Below are positions 5,201-48,941 of a stretch of DNA of 64,000 nucleotides, piece by piece. The number at the start of each line of letters is the position of its first letter. The first letter of the stretch is position 1. This stretch comes from a virus (taxonomy: Duplodnaviria; Caudoviricetes), in the IMG/VR virus record IMGVR_UViG_3300043177_000122, positions 256,001 to 320,000 of that record; one strand, 5' to 3'. The notes beneath the pieces were generated by a model that was not told the origin of the DNA, searched no databases, and saw only the letters and a list, made by a program, of their open reading frames with translations. A program made the position numbers and the translations under genes.

Positions 5201-6827
5201 AATTATTGACATCAATAATGATTCACTCTCAATACCTTTTGTTCAGGAACAGTATAATTTTAACAACTATGATGTAAACTGGGCAGTCTGTATAAATAAG
5301 AGTGGTGATTATGATGCTATTCCATTATTGGACTTTGACGCCAGCCTTGGAAATCCAAGCAACACTGCCAGAACATTTACTGCATTTGATGTAGTAAGCT
5401 CTACTTCATATGTAATACCAGCAACTACATTCTCAGATTTAATTAACAAAAGAACAGATTTAACTATTCTATACATAGTATCTTCATTTGTTTCTGGTTC
5501 TGGTACATCTGCTACCATCTCATTACAATCTGTAGATGCTAGAAAGTTCATCTATAAAAAAGATTGGGGCGAGATTGCTACATTTTGTGTTGATGCAAAT
5601 AATGGTGAGTTTAGAACATTTGATGCTTTAGAAACATGGATTAACTTTAATTCAAAATACAATAGTTTAATACATGTCAAAGGTACATTTACTGATATAC
5701 CAACTTCACTTACATACAATAATCCAGTAAGATTTGTTGGTGACGGTACAACGGTATTTAGCCCAATTAACTCTCTCTCGGTTCTAAATGTTGAGTTTAG
5801 AAATATTACATTAAATGTTAACACATTTGATTTTAATGGTGCCCCAATGGATAGATGCATCATTAATTTCAATCCAACTCCAAGTGGACATTTAGTTACA
5901 TTAAACACATTAATTACTAATACCACAATTAATTTTTCTGGTAGTGGTGGCCCAATCAATTTCTTAGCTAATACTAGACTAGAGAATGTAACGATCAATA
6001 TTACGGGCTCTAATGAAATGGTTACACTAAGTGGTTGTATAGCTAAAGACTGTACATTTAATGTAACTGGTACCAACTGTACGCTAACAATTGATTCTAA
6101 TGCTATTGTTGATGCATGTACATTTAATTTGAATGTAAGTAGTACAACTTGGAGTGTTCTAGGCACCATGACTAACAGTACTGTAAACTTCAATGCTGTT
6201 GGTACTCAGCTTCCTATTACTGCAAGCAGCTCTTCTACTACAGGATTTAATTTCTCTGGGAATAGACTTATTGTTAACTCTGCCTCCACACCACCAAGCT
6301 CTATTGTATCTGTAGTAAATGGATCTAACGGCAATATAGTTGATAACTTTTTCTTTAGATCTGGAACAACGCTTACCAATGGATATATTTTAGCACCGGC
6401 AACAGGAACGGTATCTGTTGTTGGAAACTTCTTTGATAGCACCACCTATAATGGTACTGACCTTAATTTAGTTAAGAATCTACCATTAACATGGGTTTAT
6501 AGAAGTAATTTAAATACTCCAACTATGGTAAATCTACGTAGAATTACCGGTGGTAGCACATATACTGTCGTTCCAGTTGATCATGTTTTGTCTTTTGATT
6601 TAACAAGCAGTGCTATGACAGTTAATTTACCGTCAGTTAGTTTGGGCCCACCAGGTCGTACACTAGTTATTAAAGATGCTACAGGTAACGCAGATATTAG
6701 GCCAATTACATTAGTTAGAGCTAATTCAGACGAAACTATCGAAGGTTTAGCAGCAAATTATGTGTATAATATTCCATTCGGATCTATTACATTAGTAGCA
6801 GATTCTGGTGGATGGGTTATAATATGA
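2289..6827 (+). CDS. Large virion fibre/appendage protein (1512 aa)
   Basis: N-terminal YPNGFDD...GDAINALRDAVFQIEQALG motif of fibre/whisker proteins. Beta-helix-like N/T/I-rich region near the C-terminus. Fibre-tip-type end (TVNLPS...RTLVIKDATG...ITL...ETIEG). Confidence 0.65.
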   Translation: MSNYPNGFDDDSTLPVVNDNLTEIGGDAINALRDAVFQIEQALGLNIAGVAPSLAARLGVFINPDGTPNASVLTSLGLVTLPIRNDQIVEAAGIPESKLRLDFRTQDLFNYIRDLSLDINATLGWINTQGIKLEPHLIGAIYRHTMDQIDVSASTSGFLSNVFRTLRDNTQSYTLVKDINAELLAHQWADGSPFGVEKNIVTNNGSIYTTDFAHVGSGIFINPSRFNNIPQTLDNLQLFAEFIDSASIFLLGTRIQNLYSAGISRVSESSNLTVDGYGQFLVPPTAASAFLLNVGNASGPFDDINTGDDIVVFNPSSALQANNYFDSLFALVKPGDIIRVHYGDGYNIEVPYVIREKKYNPTVGNKKYAVRIAGKNQAYSPNAIARIDKPLANNNKYGELSISPVNNQFSATPSLIINNPRGAQATGVGFAPDQFDETHYLLYLAFYPTGHAVDGYVFLPGIDVTGNQGTTPGAYTLESIVQATNNAFRKVGYNYRFTAFSSGGEFGICLADSYNNSAFSIISTAIAPDGSIDTLSNNINFPKNVISIVPTVGTVAADPLGFGPTGSGVASPPFMTSYGSSAAALNPTKLFIPLRRNNYYVNGSETERLAKEDSQALDGYGDGYWVATVQDIQVQPGRVQTTYRIPLNLDTSGLKIGKTIVVQSLGAGNLVDFGRYIIQSVNINCATNVYTDITVYDSVHAKGFSPTSTLQPFSQVAVYFGSDSVSFSTESSTDYTVVTPFKRHFEVYVDQNGKTFTHERGRLTLAGGNITVNGTTLYGYSQLNKLDIVTISPKLRGYQFGSVNKISLRMFSFSSTTGVFDGYLASYDGTNFTHFGPRTQGKKGDVIRFYDETHVDYIDVVMDPNTVITDFSDQIIDFQLFPTLQLDTELMLIGTCQVNDTTQTVSKIVDRRQFGNTSEKDLSDSVFDYMAVPEKLLHSNGVIRGFDIFNVYDGAAGIINFTGGVVLVDGKIIDINNDSLSIPFVQEQYNFNNYDVNWAVCINKSGDYDAIPLLDFDASLGNPSNTARTFTAFDVVSSTSYVIPATTFSDLINKRTDLTILYIVSSFVSGSGTSATISLQSVDARKFIYKKDWGEIATFCVDANNGEFRTFDALETWINFNSKYNSLIHVKGTFTDIPTSLTYNNPVRFVGDGTTVFSPINSLSVLNVEFRNITLNVNTFDFNGAPMDRCIINFNPTPSGHLVTLNTLITNTTINFSGSGGPINFLANTRLENVTINITGSNEMVTLSGCIAKDCTFNVTGTNCTLTIDSNAIVDACTFNLNVSSTTWSVLGTMTNSTVNFNAVGTQLPITASSSSTTGFNFSGNRLIVNSASTPPSSIVSVVNGSNGNIVDNFFFRSGTTLTNGYILAPATGTVSVVGNFFDSTTYNGTDLNLVKNLPLTWVYRSNLNTPTMVNLRRITGGSTYTVVPVDHVLSFDLTSSAMTVNLPSVSLGPPGRTLVIKDATGNADIRPITLVRANSDETIEGLAANYVYNIPFGSITLVADSGGWVII

Positions 6828-6837
6828 AAGGTATAAA

Positions 6838-7932
6838 ATGAGTAGCCCTAGACTTTTCAAACAATTTTTCAGCACACCAACCTCTGTATTAGGGGCAGGG
6901 GGAATTCTTTACACAACAGTAACGTCAGCATCAAATAACGTTGTATTGCCAACTGGAACAATTAATGTTACTTCTACCTCTGGATTTCCAACTAGTGGAC
7001 AGATAGGCGTACAAGTTATCATTAATTTTTCTTATGCTTATGTGACAGTTAGTTACACTGGAATTACAGCTACTAGTTTTACGGGTTGTACAGGTGGTAC
7101 TGGTACTATGGTTACTGGTTCTCAAATTGGTGCAATTGGTTCAATTATAACTGGTACATGGACTTGTCCAGCGGGTATTAAGTATGCTATTGTTACTGGG
7201 TGTGGCGGTGGTGGAGGTGGAGGCGGTGGTGCTAGCTCATCTGGAAGAAGCATTACTTATTTTGCAGGTGGAGGCAGTGGAGGACACCCAGCACCTACGT
7301 TAACCCAAATAATTTCTGTAACACCCGGTGTTACTTATACAATTTCTGTAGGTCAGGGAGGTATCGGGGGAACTTCCAACTGTGTAGCTAATATTGTAAG
7401 CCCATCTGGTGGTGGTACAAAACCAGGAAATCCTGGTTCAGACGGATCTTCTAGTATATTCGGCTCTACTATTTTCCCTGGTGGGAAAGGTGGTAGAGAA
7501 GGTCAATTGATTTCAATCAATACTCTTACATTTCCAGTAGGGGCTGACTGTGCTAATGCGGCTTTCTCTGGTGCTACGAACCCAACTCCACAAAATATCC
7601 AAATGGCAGCAGAACGTGCACCTTTTACTCCATTCAATGCTGTACAGGGTATAGCTCATGCTGTTAACCGCGCCCCTAACCAGTATTCGTTGTCTGGCGG
7701 AGGAACTGCTGGAGGGGTATCTAACAATGTTTTGTCAACTGCTGGAAGTGGCGGACAAGGCGCACAAGGATTTGATGGATATCCATTCGCTGGCTATGGA
7801 GGTAATGGTACCTATGGTGGCGGTGGCGGTGGTGCAGGTGGTGGTGAAAACTGGGACTATAATAACACCCATGATGGTGGTCTCGGTGGCTGGGGAGGAT
7901 CCGGCTTTATTGAAGTTGCATGGATGGCATAA
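6838..7932 (+). CDS. Glycine-rich tail-fibre-associated protein
   Basis: WTCPAGIKYAIVTGCGGGGGGGG...VTPGVTYTISVGQGG...GGSGFIEVAW is the pattern of phage Gly-rich domains. Confidence 0.7.
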   Translation: MSSPRLFKQFFSTPTSVLGAGGILYTTVTSASNNVVLPTGTINVTSTSGFPTSGQIGVQVIINFSYAYVTVSYTGITATSFTGCTGGTGTMVTGSQIGAIGSIITGTWTCPAGIKYAIVTGCGGGGGGGGGASSSGRSITYFAGGGSGGHPAPTLTQIISVTPGVTYTISVGQGGIGGTSNCVANIVSPSGGGTKPGNPGSDGSSSIFGSTIFPGGKGGREGQLISINTLTFPVGADCANAAFSGATNPTPQNIQMAAERAPFTPFNAVQGIAHAVNRAPNQYSLSGGGTAGGVSNNVLSTAGSGGQGAQGFDGYPFAGYGGNGTYGGGGGGAGGGENWDYNNTHDGGLGGWGGSGFIEVAWMA

Positions 7933-46270: not shown

Positions 46271-46980
46271 CAACTGACCCAAACTATAAGGCACTAAGCA
46301 TTGTTATTCCAGTCTTCAATAAATGGAATTTTACCAAGTCTTGTTTAAAGGATTTAGTACAATTGCCAAGCGATCATGAAATCATCATTATTGATAATGC
46401 CAGTACTGATGAGACTAATGTTGAAATCAACAAGTTCTGTGATGAATTATTCAAAACTAATCCTACTGGATGTGGCGTTGCATATATTCAGAATAAAGAA
46501 AATACTTTTCACTCAAAAGCTTGTAATCAGGGTGCCCGAATTGCGATGGGTGAACGCATCTTATTTCTGAACAATGACATAAGGGTTCGTGCCAACCATT
46601 CTACATGGACTAAGCAAATCATTGAAACTTGTGATGCTACTCAAGGACTAGTTGGACCAACCATGGGGCTTCTGGATAAGAACCTTAATTTCGTTAAAGA
46701 GGCCAACGAACAATTAGATGGTAATAGTTATCTTGGTGGTTGGTGTATTGCTGCACGCAAAGAAGTTTGGGAAAAGGTTGGATATTGGAATGAAGAATTT
46801 CCTTTCTATTTCAATGATACTGATCTAAGTTTTCGTGCTCGTCAAAAACAGATTCCTATTACTGTTGTGAAGCTGTTAGATGTTACCCATTTTGGTAAAG
46901 TCTCAGCGCAACAAATTAATATTCCGAAATTGTATCAAGAAGGAAGGAAAGTCTTCCTTAAACATTGGTCTAAAAAGTGA
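46267..46980 (+). CDS. GT-A glycosyltransferase, GT2 family
   Basis: LSIVIPVFN...EIIIIDNASTD...ACNQGA...ILFLNND...FYFNDTDLSFR. Confidence 0.9.
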   Translation: MTTDPNYKALSIVIPVFNKWNFTKSCLKDLVQLPSDHEIIIIDNASTDETNVEINKFCDELFKTNPTGCGVAYIQNKENTFHSKACNQGARIAMGERILFLNNDIRVRANHSTWTKQIIETCDATQGLVGPTMGLLDKNLNFVKEANEQLDGNSYLGGWCIAARKEVWEKVGYWNEEFPFYFNDTDLSFRARQKQIPITVVKLLDVTHFGKVSAQQINIPKLYQEGRKVFLKHWSKK

Positions 46981-47375
46981 ATGATTACATTATTGATGCT
47001 GCAATCTTGTACCGAGATGCTCTAAAGGAGAATCAAGTGGAATTATTAGTTCCATTAAATGATTTGAGAATTGTTTATGTGCCCAATATGCCACATTCTC
47101 ATAGAACTATATAGATTCGGATGGACCTTATTCTATTTTACAAAACAGAAAATTCTGATGATTGGGCTGATTTTCTTAGAGTTAGCAATTCTCCTATTGG
47201 AACTCAACGAGGCGTTTATTTTATCGGGATAAAAGATGATGATATCGATTATTATGTGACTAAAATGGCGTGCGATAATATGCAGCAAACTTATTCTCGC
47301 TCTCTACGCCCAACTTATTTTGAAATAAATCCCGATTATTTATTAAAGATACCGAAACTATTAGCATTTGCCTAA
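46977..47375 (+). pseudogene. Single reading frame split by in-frame TAG at 47112-47114 (or two small genes)
   Basis: GTG 46977 overlaps the GT2 stop. After 45 codons comes TAG, then ATT CGG ATG in the same frame as the 84-aa ORF at 47121. Confidence 0.35.
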
Positions 47376-48034
47376 TCATCAAACCTAAATTGATGTGTTT
47401 CACAATATGATTTGAATAATTCATATTTCCTACTCAAATAGATAGTGGCATCTTGATAAATCCAATCAAGAATTTTTTTGACCTGACGACTGCCGCCACT
47501 ATCTAGCCTATACGTATTGTTTGCGTATCTCTTTGGGCGGCTAACATAAGAATTTATTCCTAACTCCGATTTAAGTACATTTTGAATAGTTTCAATCATC
47601 TCTTTAGTTGATACCATCTGAACATTCATTTGATCATCTGATTTATTAATATGCAAACAGCCATCTCCATCAAAATATCCTCTAATAAAATGTCGTATCA
47701 GTTTTTTATCTAACCAATTAGGAAAAATTGTATTAAAACTTTTTGTCTGATGGCATCCTAGTGAGGCTAATGTTTTTGTAAGATGTTTACTATTCAATTC
47801 CAATCTATACGCAATGTATTTTCCTCCATTTTTGTTTTGTACGAAAGGCTCACGTGGTTGGCCAAAGAAACGCGCACATTTATATAAATGTTCTTTGTCT
47901 CGTTCTTGTAACTCAACAACTAATCTTCCAAGTTTTTCGTTATTATATGCGTTGGCATAAAAGAAACCAAGCCAATATGCTTTTTCTTCAGTGTCGATGT
48001 TATCCATTAAATTTTTATTTATCGAGTACTTCAT
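47372..48034 (-). mobile_element. Free-standing LAGLIDADG homing endonuclease gene
   Basis: DTEEKAYWLGFFYANAY and HFIRGYFDGDG motifs. The only substantial minus-strand gene. Start moved to ATG 48034. Confidence 0.8.
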
Positions 48035-48052
48035 CTTGATATATAATATATC
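48035..48052. promoter_or_regulatory. CTTGATATATAAT motif, copy 3, within palindrome TGATATATAATATATCA (possibly bidirectional)
   Basis: Lies between the divergent LAGLIDADG and Nei genes. 8-bp arms around a central A. Confidence 0.55.
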
Positions 48053-48104
48053 ATGAAATGCCCGAATTGACAGAAGTAGCATTCAGAAAGTGTTTAGGTG
48101 TAAA

Positions 48105-48941
48105 ATTCCGGAAGGTCCTGAAGTAAAATTAAGCGCCGATTTAATTAGACCATTAGTTATAGGTAAGAGGGTAATTAATGCATTTCCAGGTAAGAAAAGT
48201 AGATACGCAACTAGTCCCCCAGATGGGTTTTCTAGTTTTTTGGATACAATCACCAAAGAAGAAGTAAGAGTTATTGAAGTAGATGTCAAAGGTAAATTTA
48301 TGTACTGGAAGTTTAGTAACGGATGGTACATGATGAATTCTTTTGGTATGAGTGGTCAATGGTCTCCTAAAGAAGGTAAACACCCTTGTTTTGTTTTTTA
48401 TTTTAGTGAGAATTGGCCCGTCGTGGAAGAGACTATGTACTTCAATGACCCGCGGCACTTTGGAACCATAAAGTTCACAAATTCTGAAAAAGAGTTTAAC
48501 AAAAAACTTGATGAATTAGGATGGGATCCCTTATCGATGCCGCTTGACAAAAGCGTACGATGGATTACATTTCAACTCTCTAAATCTAAGAAACCTATTG
48601 CTGAAGTTTTGATGGATCAGGGACTTTTTTCTGGGGTCGGAAACTATATTAGGGCTGAAGCGTTATATGCATGTAAGCTTTCACCATGGCGGGCTTCTAA
48701 TACGCTTTCCAAGGATGAAATTCAATTGTTATGTCAGGCCATTGTTGATGTTATGCAAGAATCATACCAGCACCAAGGCGCTACTATTCATACCTACAAA
48801 ACCGCTTATGGTGATGAAGGTCATTACTCAACTAAGTTCAAGGTATATGGTCAGAAGCAAGACCCACTTGGTCATAAAATTGTGAAGCAGCAGACAGCAG
48901 ATAAAAGAACTATTTACTGGTGTCCTGACGTTCAAGTATAA
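48105..48941 (+). CDS. nei: Fpg/Nei-family DNA glycosylase/AP lyase, zincless-finger type; probable ATT start
   Basis: PEGPEV catalytic N-terminus, VDVKGKFMY, FGMSG, H2TH region LMDQGLFSGVGNYIRAEALY and RTIYWCP end. Confidence 0.85.
   Translation: MPEGPEVKLSADLIRPLVIGKRVINAFPGKKSRYATSPPDGFSSFLDTITKEEVRVIEVDVKGKFMYWKFSNGWYMMNSFGMSGQWSPKEGKHPCFVFYFSENWPVVEETMYFNDPRHFGTIKFTNSEKEFNKKLDELGWDPLSMPLDKSVRWITFQLSKSKKPIAEVLMDQGLFSGVGNYIRAEALYACKLSPWRASNTLSKDEIQLLCQAIVDVMQESYQHQGATIHTYKTAYGDEGHYSTKFKVYGQKQDPLGHKIVKQQTADKRTIYWCPDVQV

Follow-up and report, generated by a model that had tools for sequence, protein, structure and literature searches.

Glycosylases of the Fpg/Nei family use the proline at residue 2 (Pro2) as the catalytic nucleophile, which has to become the free N-terminus after removal of methionine. 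In the mobA/gene 60 cassette of phage T4, a homing endonuclease occurs together with a translational bypass of 50 nt, and I-TevI represses its own synthesis at an operator that resembles its homing site. The pcnB gene of E. coli starts at AUU, the codon discriminated by initiation factor 3 (IF3). An AUU start is also used by infC (PMC5499595). On a phage lysin mRNA in E. coli, AUU, AUC and AUA starts gave 5-7.5% of AUG output, and AUG-to-AUA/AUU/AUC mutants of T4 rIIB and of the murein hydrolase of phage HB-3 retained between a few and 15% of AUG-level translation (PMC5499595). Here we describe a DNA-repair gene, nei, of a huge uncultured phage in a stretch of 64,000 nucleotides (hereafter the window; bases 256001-320000 of the 358,993-base virus record IMGVR_UViG_3300043177_000122), in which the codon directly before the proline codon is ATT.

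The genes of the window are tightly packed on the + strand, in the style of huge tailed phages. From position 48090 the sequence reads GTG TTT AGG TGT AAA ATT CCG GAA GGT CCT GAA GTA. A 4-nt spacer TAAA (48101-48104) separates AGGTG from ATT, and the open frame of nei ends at TAA 48939-48941. The elements around the start are the following (labels beginning with L, here and below, denote related loci or genomes compared with the window):

48105-48107, + strand: ATT, the proposed initiator codon of nei, immediately 5' of the proline codon at 48108.
48096-48100, + strand: Shine-Dalgarno-like AGGTG, a 5-nt match to the anti-Shine-Dalgarno complement, with an aligned spacing of 6.
48085-48107, + strand: conserved 23-nt initiation block, AGAAAGTGTTTAGGTGTAAAATT, recognised by identity across five genomes.
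48108-48941, + strand: nei reading frame, Pro2 to stop codon, encoding an Fpg/Nei glycosylase of the zincless-finger type according to Pfam and NCBIfam matches.
48090-48092, + strand: in-frame GTG, the gene caller's start (MFRCKI-PEG...), judged to be a false start (no Shine-Dalgarno element; GGG in L316).
48058-48126, + strand: 22-codon out-of-frame open reading frame (ORF), beginning ATG CCC GAA TTG ACA GAA GTA (MPELTEV), a degenerate copy of the nei 5' end (hereafter the pseudo-5' end).

Judged from the sequence and its relatives, initiation at the AUU at 48105 is the best reading of this arrangement, and we consider it probable. The AUU of the nei mRNA would be positioned by the AGGTG element, and initiator tRNA would insert formylmethionine there. 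A deformylase and a methionine aminopeptidase, both encoded by the phage, would then expose Pro1, the catalytic nucleophile of Nei. The predicted outcome is an active zincless-finger enzyme, the level of which would be set by the near-cognate start. The 23-nt block with its ATT would move horizontally among related huge phages; in the window it may have arrived with, or may simply sit beside, a LAGLIDADG homing endonuclease cassette on the reverse strand.

As in infC and pcnB of E. coli, a near-cognate AUU placed by a Shine-Dalgarno element would act as initiator, and IF3 discrimination and lower output are expected. Unlike infC, nei encodes a phage DNA glycosylase with no known autoregulatory loop, and ATT, ATC and ATA interchange at its start across lineages. 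Furthermore, its ATT lies on an apparently mobile 23-nt block beside a homing endonuclease gene, in a phage that has its own IF3. The T4 rIIB and HB-3 mutants likewise place an AUH codon (AUU, AUC or AUA) at the start of a phage mRNA, whereas the AUH codons of nei are natural, conserved and recurrent. A literature search of incomplete coverage returned no report of AUH-initiated Fpg/Nei proteins or of homing endonucleases tied to start codons. The near-cognate start codon itself is of a known kind; what is new is that the initiation block is mobile and is associated with a homing endonuclease.

The first-pass annotation of the window, made from the letters alone, had noted ATT before the PEGPEV motif and AGGTG 4 nt upstream, which is correct to the base. 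It had also allowed for an assembly error in place of a true ATG, and this is contradicted by public contigs. Contigs of two freshwater runs cover the ATT site at word depths of 13.8 and 25.9, with no variant listed, and a 69.9-kb Logan contig from a public run has 0 mismatches to the window over 6852 bases. Since the contigs of both freshwater runs have identical bases, an assembly slip is unlikely. Both runs are possibly source samples, hence this evidence speaks against an assembler slip and is silent on polymorphism in the population. That a sequencing or assembly error hides an ATG found no support beyond the fact that the record is a metagenome assembly. Besides the identical Logan contigs of the two runs (depth 14 and 26), five further assemblies have this ATT, and the probability of such an error appears negligible. 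The ATT pattern is beyond chance, as divergent relatives repeat the ATT within its 23-nt context.

Upstream, the GTG at 48090, five codons 5' of the ATT, is the sole canonical start in frame. It is the start chosen by gene callers, and it is kept in L011, L012 and L013 as in the window. Initiation there would put a MFRCKI leader before the proline and would yield an enzyme that is inactive as a glycosylase or has to be processed, for which Nei homologues with a conserved 9-residue extension (L210, L220) provide a parallel. The argument of the first-pass annotation that the codon directly before the proline must be the initiator, because the upstream GTG would bury the catalytic residue, holds; we know of no protease that cuts before proline to free an Fpg/Nei nucleophile. 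No Shine-Dalgarno-like match was found upstream of GTG 48090 or of ATG 48058, and the AGGTG sits downstream of the GTG. In addition, GGG replaces the GTG in L316, so that the block does not always contain the GTG. Other variants of the block would begin elsewhere (MRCNI, LRCNI, MCVI), and further lineages with ATT, ATC or ATA (ATH) before the proline have no upstream start at all. Taken together, a start at GTG 48090 seems improbable. The spacing of the AGGTG to the ATT was compared with 166 starts across the whole genome, each picked for having a Shine-Dalgarno match. Their spacings cover a broad range with a peak at 4-5, and the spacing of 6 at the ATT falls inside this range. The locus thus combines the absence of a canonical start for a functional N-terminus with a suitably spaced ribosome binding site and with ATT in orthologues under selection; AUU initiation, as suggested at first pass, is by comparison the best reading, with a Shine-Dalgarno element at a workable distance.

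From the proline onward, Pfam finds the Fapy_DNA_glyco N-terminal domain (PF01149, E 7e-12), the H2TH domain (PF06831, E 7e-20) and the zincless C-terminal domain (PF21025, 30.6 bits at a cut-off of 27). With isoleucine counted as residue 1, the proline of Nei (residue 2) aligns to position 2 of the Pfam profile and to residue 2 of solved PDB chains, and sub-threshold NCBIfam matches to fpg and Nei run from residue 1. The finger holds a single cysteine (WCP) and is therefore of the zincless type. The best solved relatives are the PDB chains 3A45, 3VK7 and 4NRW (E 1e-38, aligned from Pro2 to the C-terminus), which we take to be mimivirus Nei1, the PDB titles saying only formamidopyrimidine-DNA glycosylase. 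Like mimivirus Nei1 (3A45, 3A46, 3VK7, 4NRW), the window protein has an N-terminal Pro-Glu, an H2TH domain and a single-Cys zincless finger; unlike it, it comes from a tailed huge phage and not from a giant virus of eukaryotes, and the two are about 30% identical. The mimiviral source of the zincless-finger structures and their link to human NEIL1 are assumed here, and the genes of both mimivirus Nei1 and NEIL1 presumably start with ATG.

Some 60 alignment columns are invariant over 45 sequences, 14 ATH-type genes included, among them Pro2, Glu3, Lys64 (of the GKF motif) and Arg268. The features typical of the Fpg/Nei family, namely Pro-Glu after the initiator, H2TH, the conserved lysine and a zincless finger with its arginine, are all present. 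Between the window gene and the ATG-type nei of L233/L234 (dS 0.7-0.9), dN/dS is 0.10, the same as for the L233-L234 pair, and a three-way subtraction of distances gives about 0.09 for the window branch. The terminal branch of the window on the Nei protein tree is not long. As far as sequence can tell, these values argue against an old pseudogene.

Most orthologues of nei use ATG (ATG-CCN-GAA-GG). In a homology-based sample of 61 loci on viral contigs, the codon before the proline is ATG in 43, GTG in 7, TTG in 4, ATT in 2 and ATC in 2, the remaining 3 having a longer extension. Isoleucine stands before Pro-Glu-Gly in 15/116 close homologues, 12 of which carry a FRCxI or RCxI extension. A pattern scan for ATT, ATC or ATA before the proline revealed 13 full-length Nei loci (near-duplicate pairs included) in several further phage groups, and the homology sample contributed two further ATH-type loci (L194, L198). 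Between the upstream in-frame stop and the proline there is no ATG, GTG or TTG in L020, L021, L035, L040, L044, L046, L194 and L198, and in L014 there is none before the proline within the stretch read; the ATH codon is therefore the sole route to the enzyme in these loci. In all eight ATH-type genes scanned (8/8), the Pfam N-terminal domain begins at profile position 2 on residue 1. The first-pass annotation had considered that all relatives might have ATG and that the ATT might be a simple inactivating mutation. Most relatives do have ATG, yet a conserved, recurrent and selected class with ATT, ATC or ATA exists beside them.

The sequence AGAAAGNGTTNAGGTGTANNATT stands directly 5' of the proline codon (CCN-GAA-GG) in L011, L012, L013 and L316, and L174 also has ATT at this position. 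Mean pairwise identity of the 23-nt block in five genomes is 89%, as compared with 63% over their nei genes and 44% at third codon positions. Upstream sequences of ATG-type relatives are varied, and monophyly of the ATH alleles on the Nei tree is rejected (log-likelihood difference 725, approximately unbiased (AU) p 8e-82), from which it follows that block and ATT move as a unit relative to the gene body. In L012 and L013 the block lies directly 3' of a small ORF and the upstream 22-codon ORF is missing, hence the block stands alone. An exact-pattern scan of viral contigs with the window's own 5' block gave no match. As for close cultured relatives, megablast returned nothing useful, and tblastn in a phage collection gave only matches of at most 31% identity.

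Several points weigh against AUU initiation. Near-cognate starts are weak in E. coli, and no RNA run holding the window stretch is listed. The in-frame GTG five codons upstream is present in 4/5 sequenced copies of the block. The time at which ATG was lost cannot be read from purifying selection along a long branch. Moreover, the ATH alleles are scattered tips of the Nei tree (13 changes for 15 rows), a pattern also expected if a selfish element spread alleles that are mildly harmful and soon lost.

Candidate factors for initiation and processing are encoded by the phage. An IF3 homologue lies outside the window (G000:C1:146479-146730; L396, ORF about 1219-1770; Pfam IF3_C, 93 bits). Its open frame, by eye, also resembles the N-terminal region of IF3, and the gene probably starts at ATG. 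A type I methionine aminopeptidase (G000:C1:325305-325991; L235:1423-2226; TIGR00500, 224 bits, above cut-off) and a peptide deformylase (G000:C1:168658-169080; PF01327, 94 bits) were found as well. Sensitivity of the nei AUU start to IF3 is plausible, and is of more interest since the phage has an IF3 of its own. The phage IF3 occurs in 3/5 related complete genomes of huge phages and is absent from the ATT-type L174, which argues against a simple tie between IF3 and ATT.

Because Fpg/Nei proteins need proline directly after the initiator, the true start position of nei is certain, and the family is a natural reporter of start-codon identity. ATH starts account for about 7% of the homology-based sample of Nei on viral contigs and for 13% of the close homologues, and gene callers can call none of them. 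By this measure, near-cognate initiation in phages appears to be missed in annotation, and the N-termini of many database entries for Nei appear to be falsely extended or truncated. The share of 7-13% has to be read with caution because Nei is among the few families in which an ATH start is recognisable at all, and under-annotation of a general kind, not an excess specific to Nei, may lie behind it.

Two further groups of Nei loci deserve mention. The homologues in L210, L220 and L221 (about 1470-1510) have no start-like codon before the proline. In L210 and L220 a 9-residue extension M....D[K/E]PP precedes Pro-Glu-Gly, and close relatives have ATG-Pro-Glu-Gly; these loci may represent a leader-bearing or inactive subclass. 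In another phage group, L008 (TGATG) and L014 (ATCCCTGA) have the stop of the upstream gene in overlap with the nei start, and in L040 and L044 this stop lies 13-18 nt before nei. The start is ATG in L008 and ATC in L014, L040 and L044. As nei abuts the upstream stop in these loci, translational coupling is possible.

Upstream of nei, the window differs from its closest ATG-type relatives by an insert with the following features:

46981-48107, no strand: 1.13-kb insert relative to the closest ATG-type relatives, comprising small ORFs, the endonuclease gene, the pseudo-5' end and the ATT block.
47372-48034, - strand: free-standing LAGLIDADG homing endonuclease gene, 220 aa, with Pfam matches LAGLIDADG_3 and LAGLIDADG_1.
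47121-47375, + strand: 84-aa small ORF 5' of the endonuclease gene, with position and C-terminal motif like the small ORF that precedes nei in relatives.
48045-48073, - strand: match to a sigma-70-like promoter, CTGTCA-17-TATATT with TG, directed towards the endonuclease gene; it overlaps the pseudo-5' end.

In L233 and L234, the closest ATG-type relatives (Nei 84-87% identical), the stop of the GT2 gene is followed by TC-ATG-CCG (see also L002). One contig of the soil run X4 has an ATG-type junction without the endonuclease gene, relatives being present in the soil runs X3 and X4 as short pieces only. The window endonuclease matches PF14528 (E 4e-13) and PF00961 (E 2e-5), and its two LAGLIDADG motifs, WLGFFYADA and IRGYFDGDG, are conserved across five homologues. 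Homologous endonuclease genes (59-76% identical) occupy the same place in the same orientation in L011, L316, L179/180, L185/186 and L192. The nei genes beside them start with ATT (L011, L316), GTG (L179/180, L185/186) or TTG (L192). The GTG and TTG at the position of the ATT in these homologous cassettes are both accepted starts. With the window included, the nei start is non-ATG in 6/6 distinct endonuclease-bearing loci; the endonuclease is absent upstream of nei from 17 related loci. In an unbiased, de-duplicated sample of the clade, the start is non-ATG in 3/3 loci with the endonuclease versus 3/17 without (Fisher p 0.018), a test weakened by the shared ancestry of the cassettes. Addition of L316, which was found via the endonuclease alone, would make this 4/4.

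As in T4 mobA/gene 60, Seg and I-TevI, a free-standing endonuclease gene adjoins a conserved target gene, and, as with mobA, Seg and I-TevI, a short 5' stretch of this gene sets the endonuclease-bearing allele apart from empty ones. A target-like sequence in the endonuclease's own upstream region is a further likeness to I-TevI. In contrast to mobA, Seg and I-TevI, the window endonuclease belongs to the LAGLIDADG family, is divergently oriented and has no known cleavage site. Unlike T4 gene 60, the linked change concerns a start codon instead of a coding gap, and the arrangement requires no bypass.

Since all six endonuclease-bearing loci have a non-ATG start, the loss of ATG in nei may be tied to the selfish element, and co-conversion driven by the endonuclease is a plausible vehicle of the block. 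Linkage to a selfish element, or immunity to it, offers a different or additional cause of the ATT as compared with the translational throttling of a potentially genotoxic enzyme that was conjectured at first pass. Expression tuning could still be at work, because ATH starts also occur in lineages without an endonuclease in the flanks read and because the starts of close relatives vary between ATG, GTG, TTG and ATC. Within this clade, linkage to the selfish element explains the ATT no less well than tuning does. If the tie between endonuclease and non-ATG start is causal, it would constitute a novel route by which selfish DNA shapes translation signals.

More tentatively, one may imagine that the loss of ATG is a by-product of conflict with the adjoining endonuclease, such that immunity and not tuning fixes the near-cognate starts. 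The recognition site would then span the invariant 5' end of nei (ATG-CCN-GAA-GG), and ATT, GTG or TTG in place of ATG would render nei uncleavable yet translatable. The ATT block would spread by co-conversion and outlive the loss of the endonuclease, as might be the case in L174, L012 and L013. L174 combines ATT with a remnant of the pseudo-5' end and lacks the endonuclease gene. We regard this scenario as possible, with the odds rather against it. If true, near-cognate starts in a repair gene would have been fixed by immunity to a selfish element instead of by tuning.

The same linkage could have a less favourable meaning for nei, namely that the start was damaged by hitch-hiking: the endonuclease-linked ATT block would leave nei silent or nearly so, as a young and still undecayed pseudogene. 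The scattered ATH tips and the rejected monophyly would fit this, as would the position of the block within a 1.1-kb endonuclease insert that the closest relatives lack, and selfish elements may well bring mildly harmful linked changes. However, the ORF is intact with a dN/dS of 0.10, and the cassettes of the window and L011 have diverged by about 25% in DNA with both nei genes intact. The ATT-type L012 and L013 retain all invariant residues, sister cassettes have GTG or TTG at the same site, and other lineages have an ATH-type Nei with neither an alternative start nor an endonuclease in the flanks read. Silencing by hitch-hiking is thus unlikely, and productive AUU initiation remains the preferred reading.

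An ATG-CCN pseudo-5' end lies 46-49 nt before the real nei start in 6/6 endonuclease-bearing loci. It resembles the nei 5' end (ATG-CCN...GAA-GTN-AAA) and, by eye, also the 3' end of the small upstream ORF. Over its first seven codons, variation among five loci avoids second codon positions of the + frame. The 23 nt just left of the block, which form the 3' part of the pseudo-5' end, are 91-96% identical in the window, L011 and L316, and the endonuclease proteins of these three are only about 75% identical. The pseudo-5' end may act as an operator or promoter, may encode a small peptide, or may be a relic.

The constant presence of this element, together with a Shine-Dalgarno-like motif before the proline codon as landing codon and the precedent of T4 mobA/gene 60, raises the question whether nei depends on the 22-codon ORF. 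Ribosomes might hop from CCC-GAA to CCG-GAA 47 nt further on, slip by -1 at A-AAA, or reinitiate after termination. Several facts contradict these routes. The 22-codon ORF has no Shine-Dalgarno element, a nascent-peptide signal is not available after 2-3 codons, there is no stop after the take-off codon, and a -1 slip would add a 17-residue extension. Before the landing proline, only codons able to start translation (ATT, GTG or TTG) occur, a property that hopping does not require. Furthermore, L012 and L013 have the ATT block and lack the 22-codon ORF, which makes hopping or frameshifting unnecessary. In the stretch from the pseudo-5' end to the nei start, conserved RNA structure was not found: folded singly, the sequences give weak structures (-7 to -15 kcal/mol), and an alignment fold of this stretch has 2 invariant pairs and no covariation. 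A dependence on the 22-codon ORF is accordingly very improbable.

Sigma-70 matches in the region are not above the shuffled expectation, and the match facing the endonuclease gene is a lead only. A group I or II intron or other known RNA in the insert was considered and rejected, as Rfam gave no match at E<=1 for 46700-48400 on both strands. The junction bases of the insert also misfit the splice-site rules of group I and II introns. A recent transfer of the cassette between the window and L011 was likewise rejected, the cassettes (62-85% identity per 100 nt) being no more alike than the flanking genes.

Small ORFs of 105-132 aa lie between GT2 and nei in L003, L005, L012, L013 and L174. Homology of the 84-aa ORF of the window to these small ORFs is seen by eye only, tblastn being not significant. 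The region 46977-47375 of the window holds ORFs of 45 and 84 aa, and L011 has 91 and 81 aa, with no Pfam match; the small ORFs before the endonuclease in the window may represent a split or rearranged gene.

The endonuclease belongs to a LAGLIDADG family with more than 500 relatives each in viral and metagenome contigs among the matches listed. Among the matches listed (L236-L395), only members of at least 58% identity adjoin nei, and the rest (at most 44%) have no Nei in the flanks read. In L011, a gene for a GIY-YIG/NUMOD3 endonuclease (6663-6852) lies next after the epimerase gene within the same glycosylation cluster; homing endonucleases of more than one type are thus drawn to this locus.

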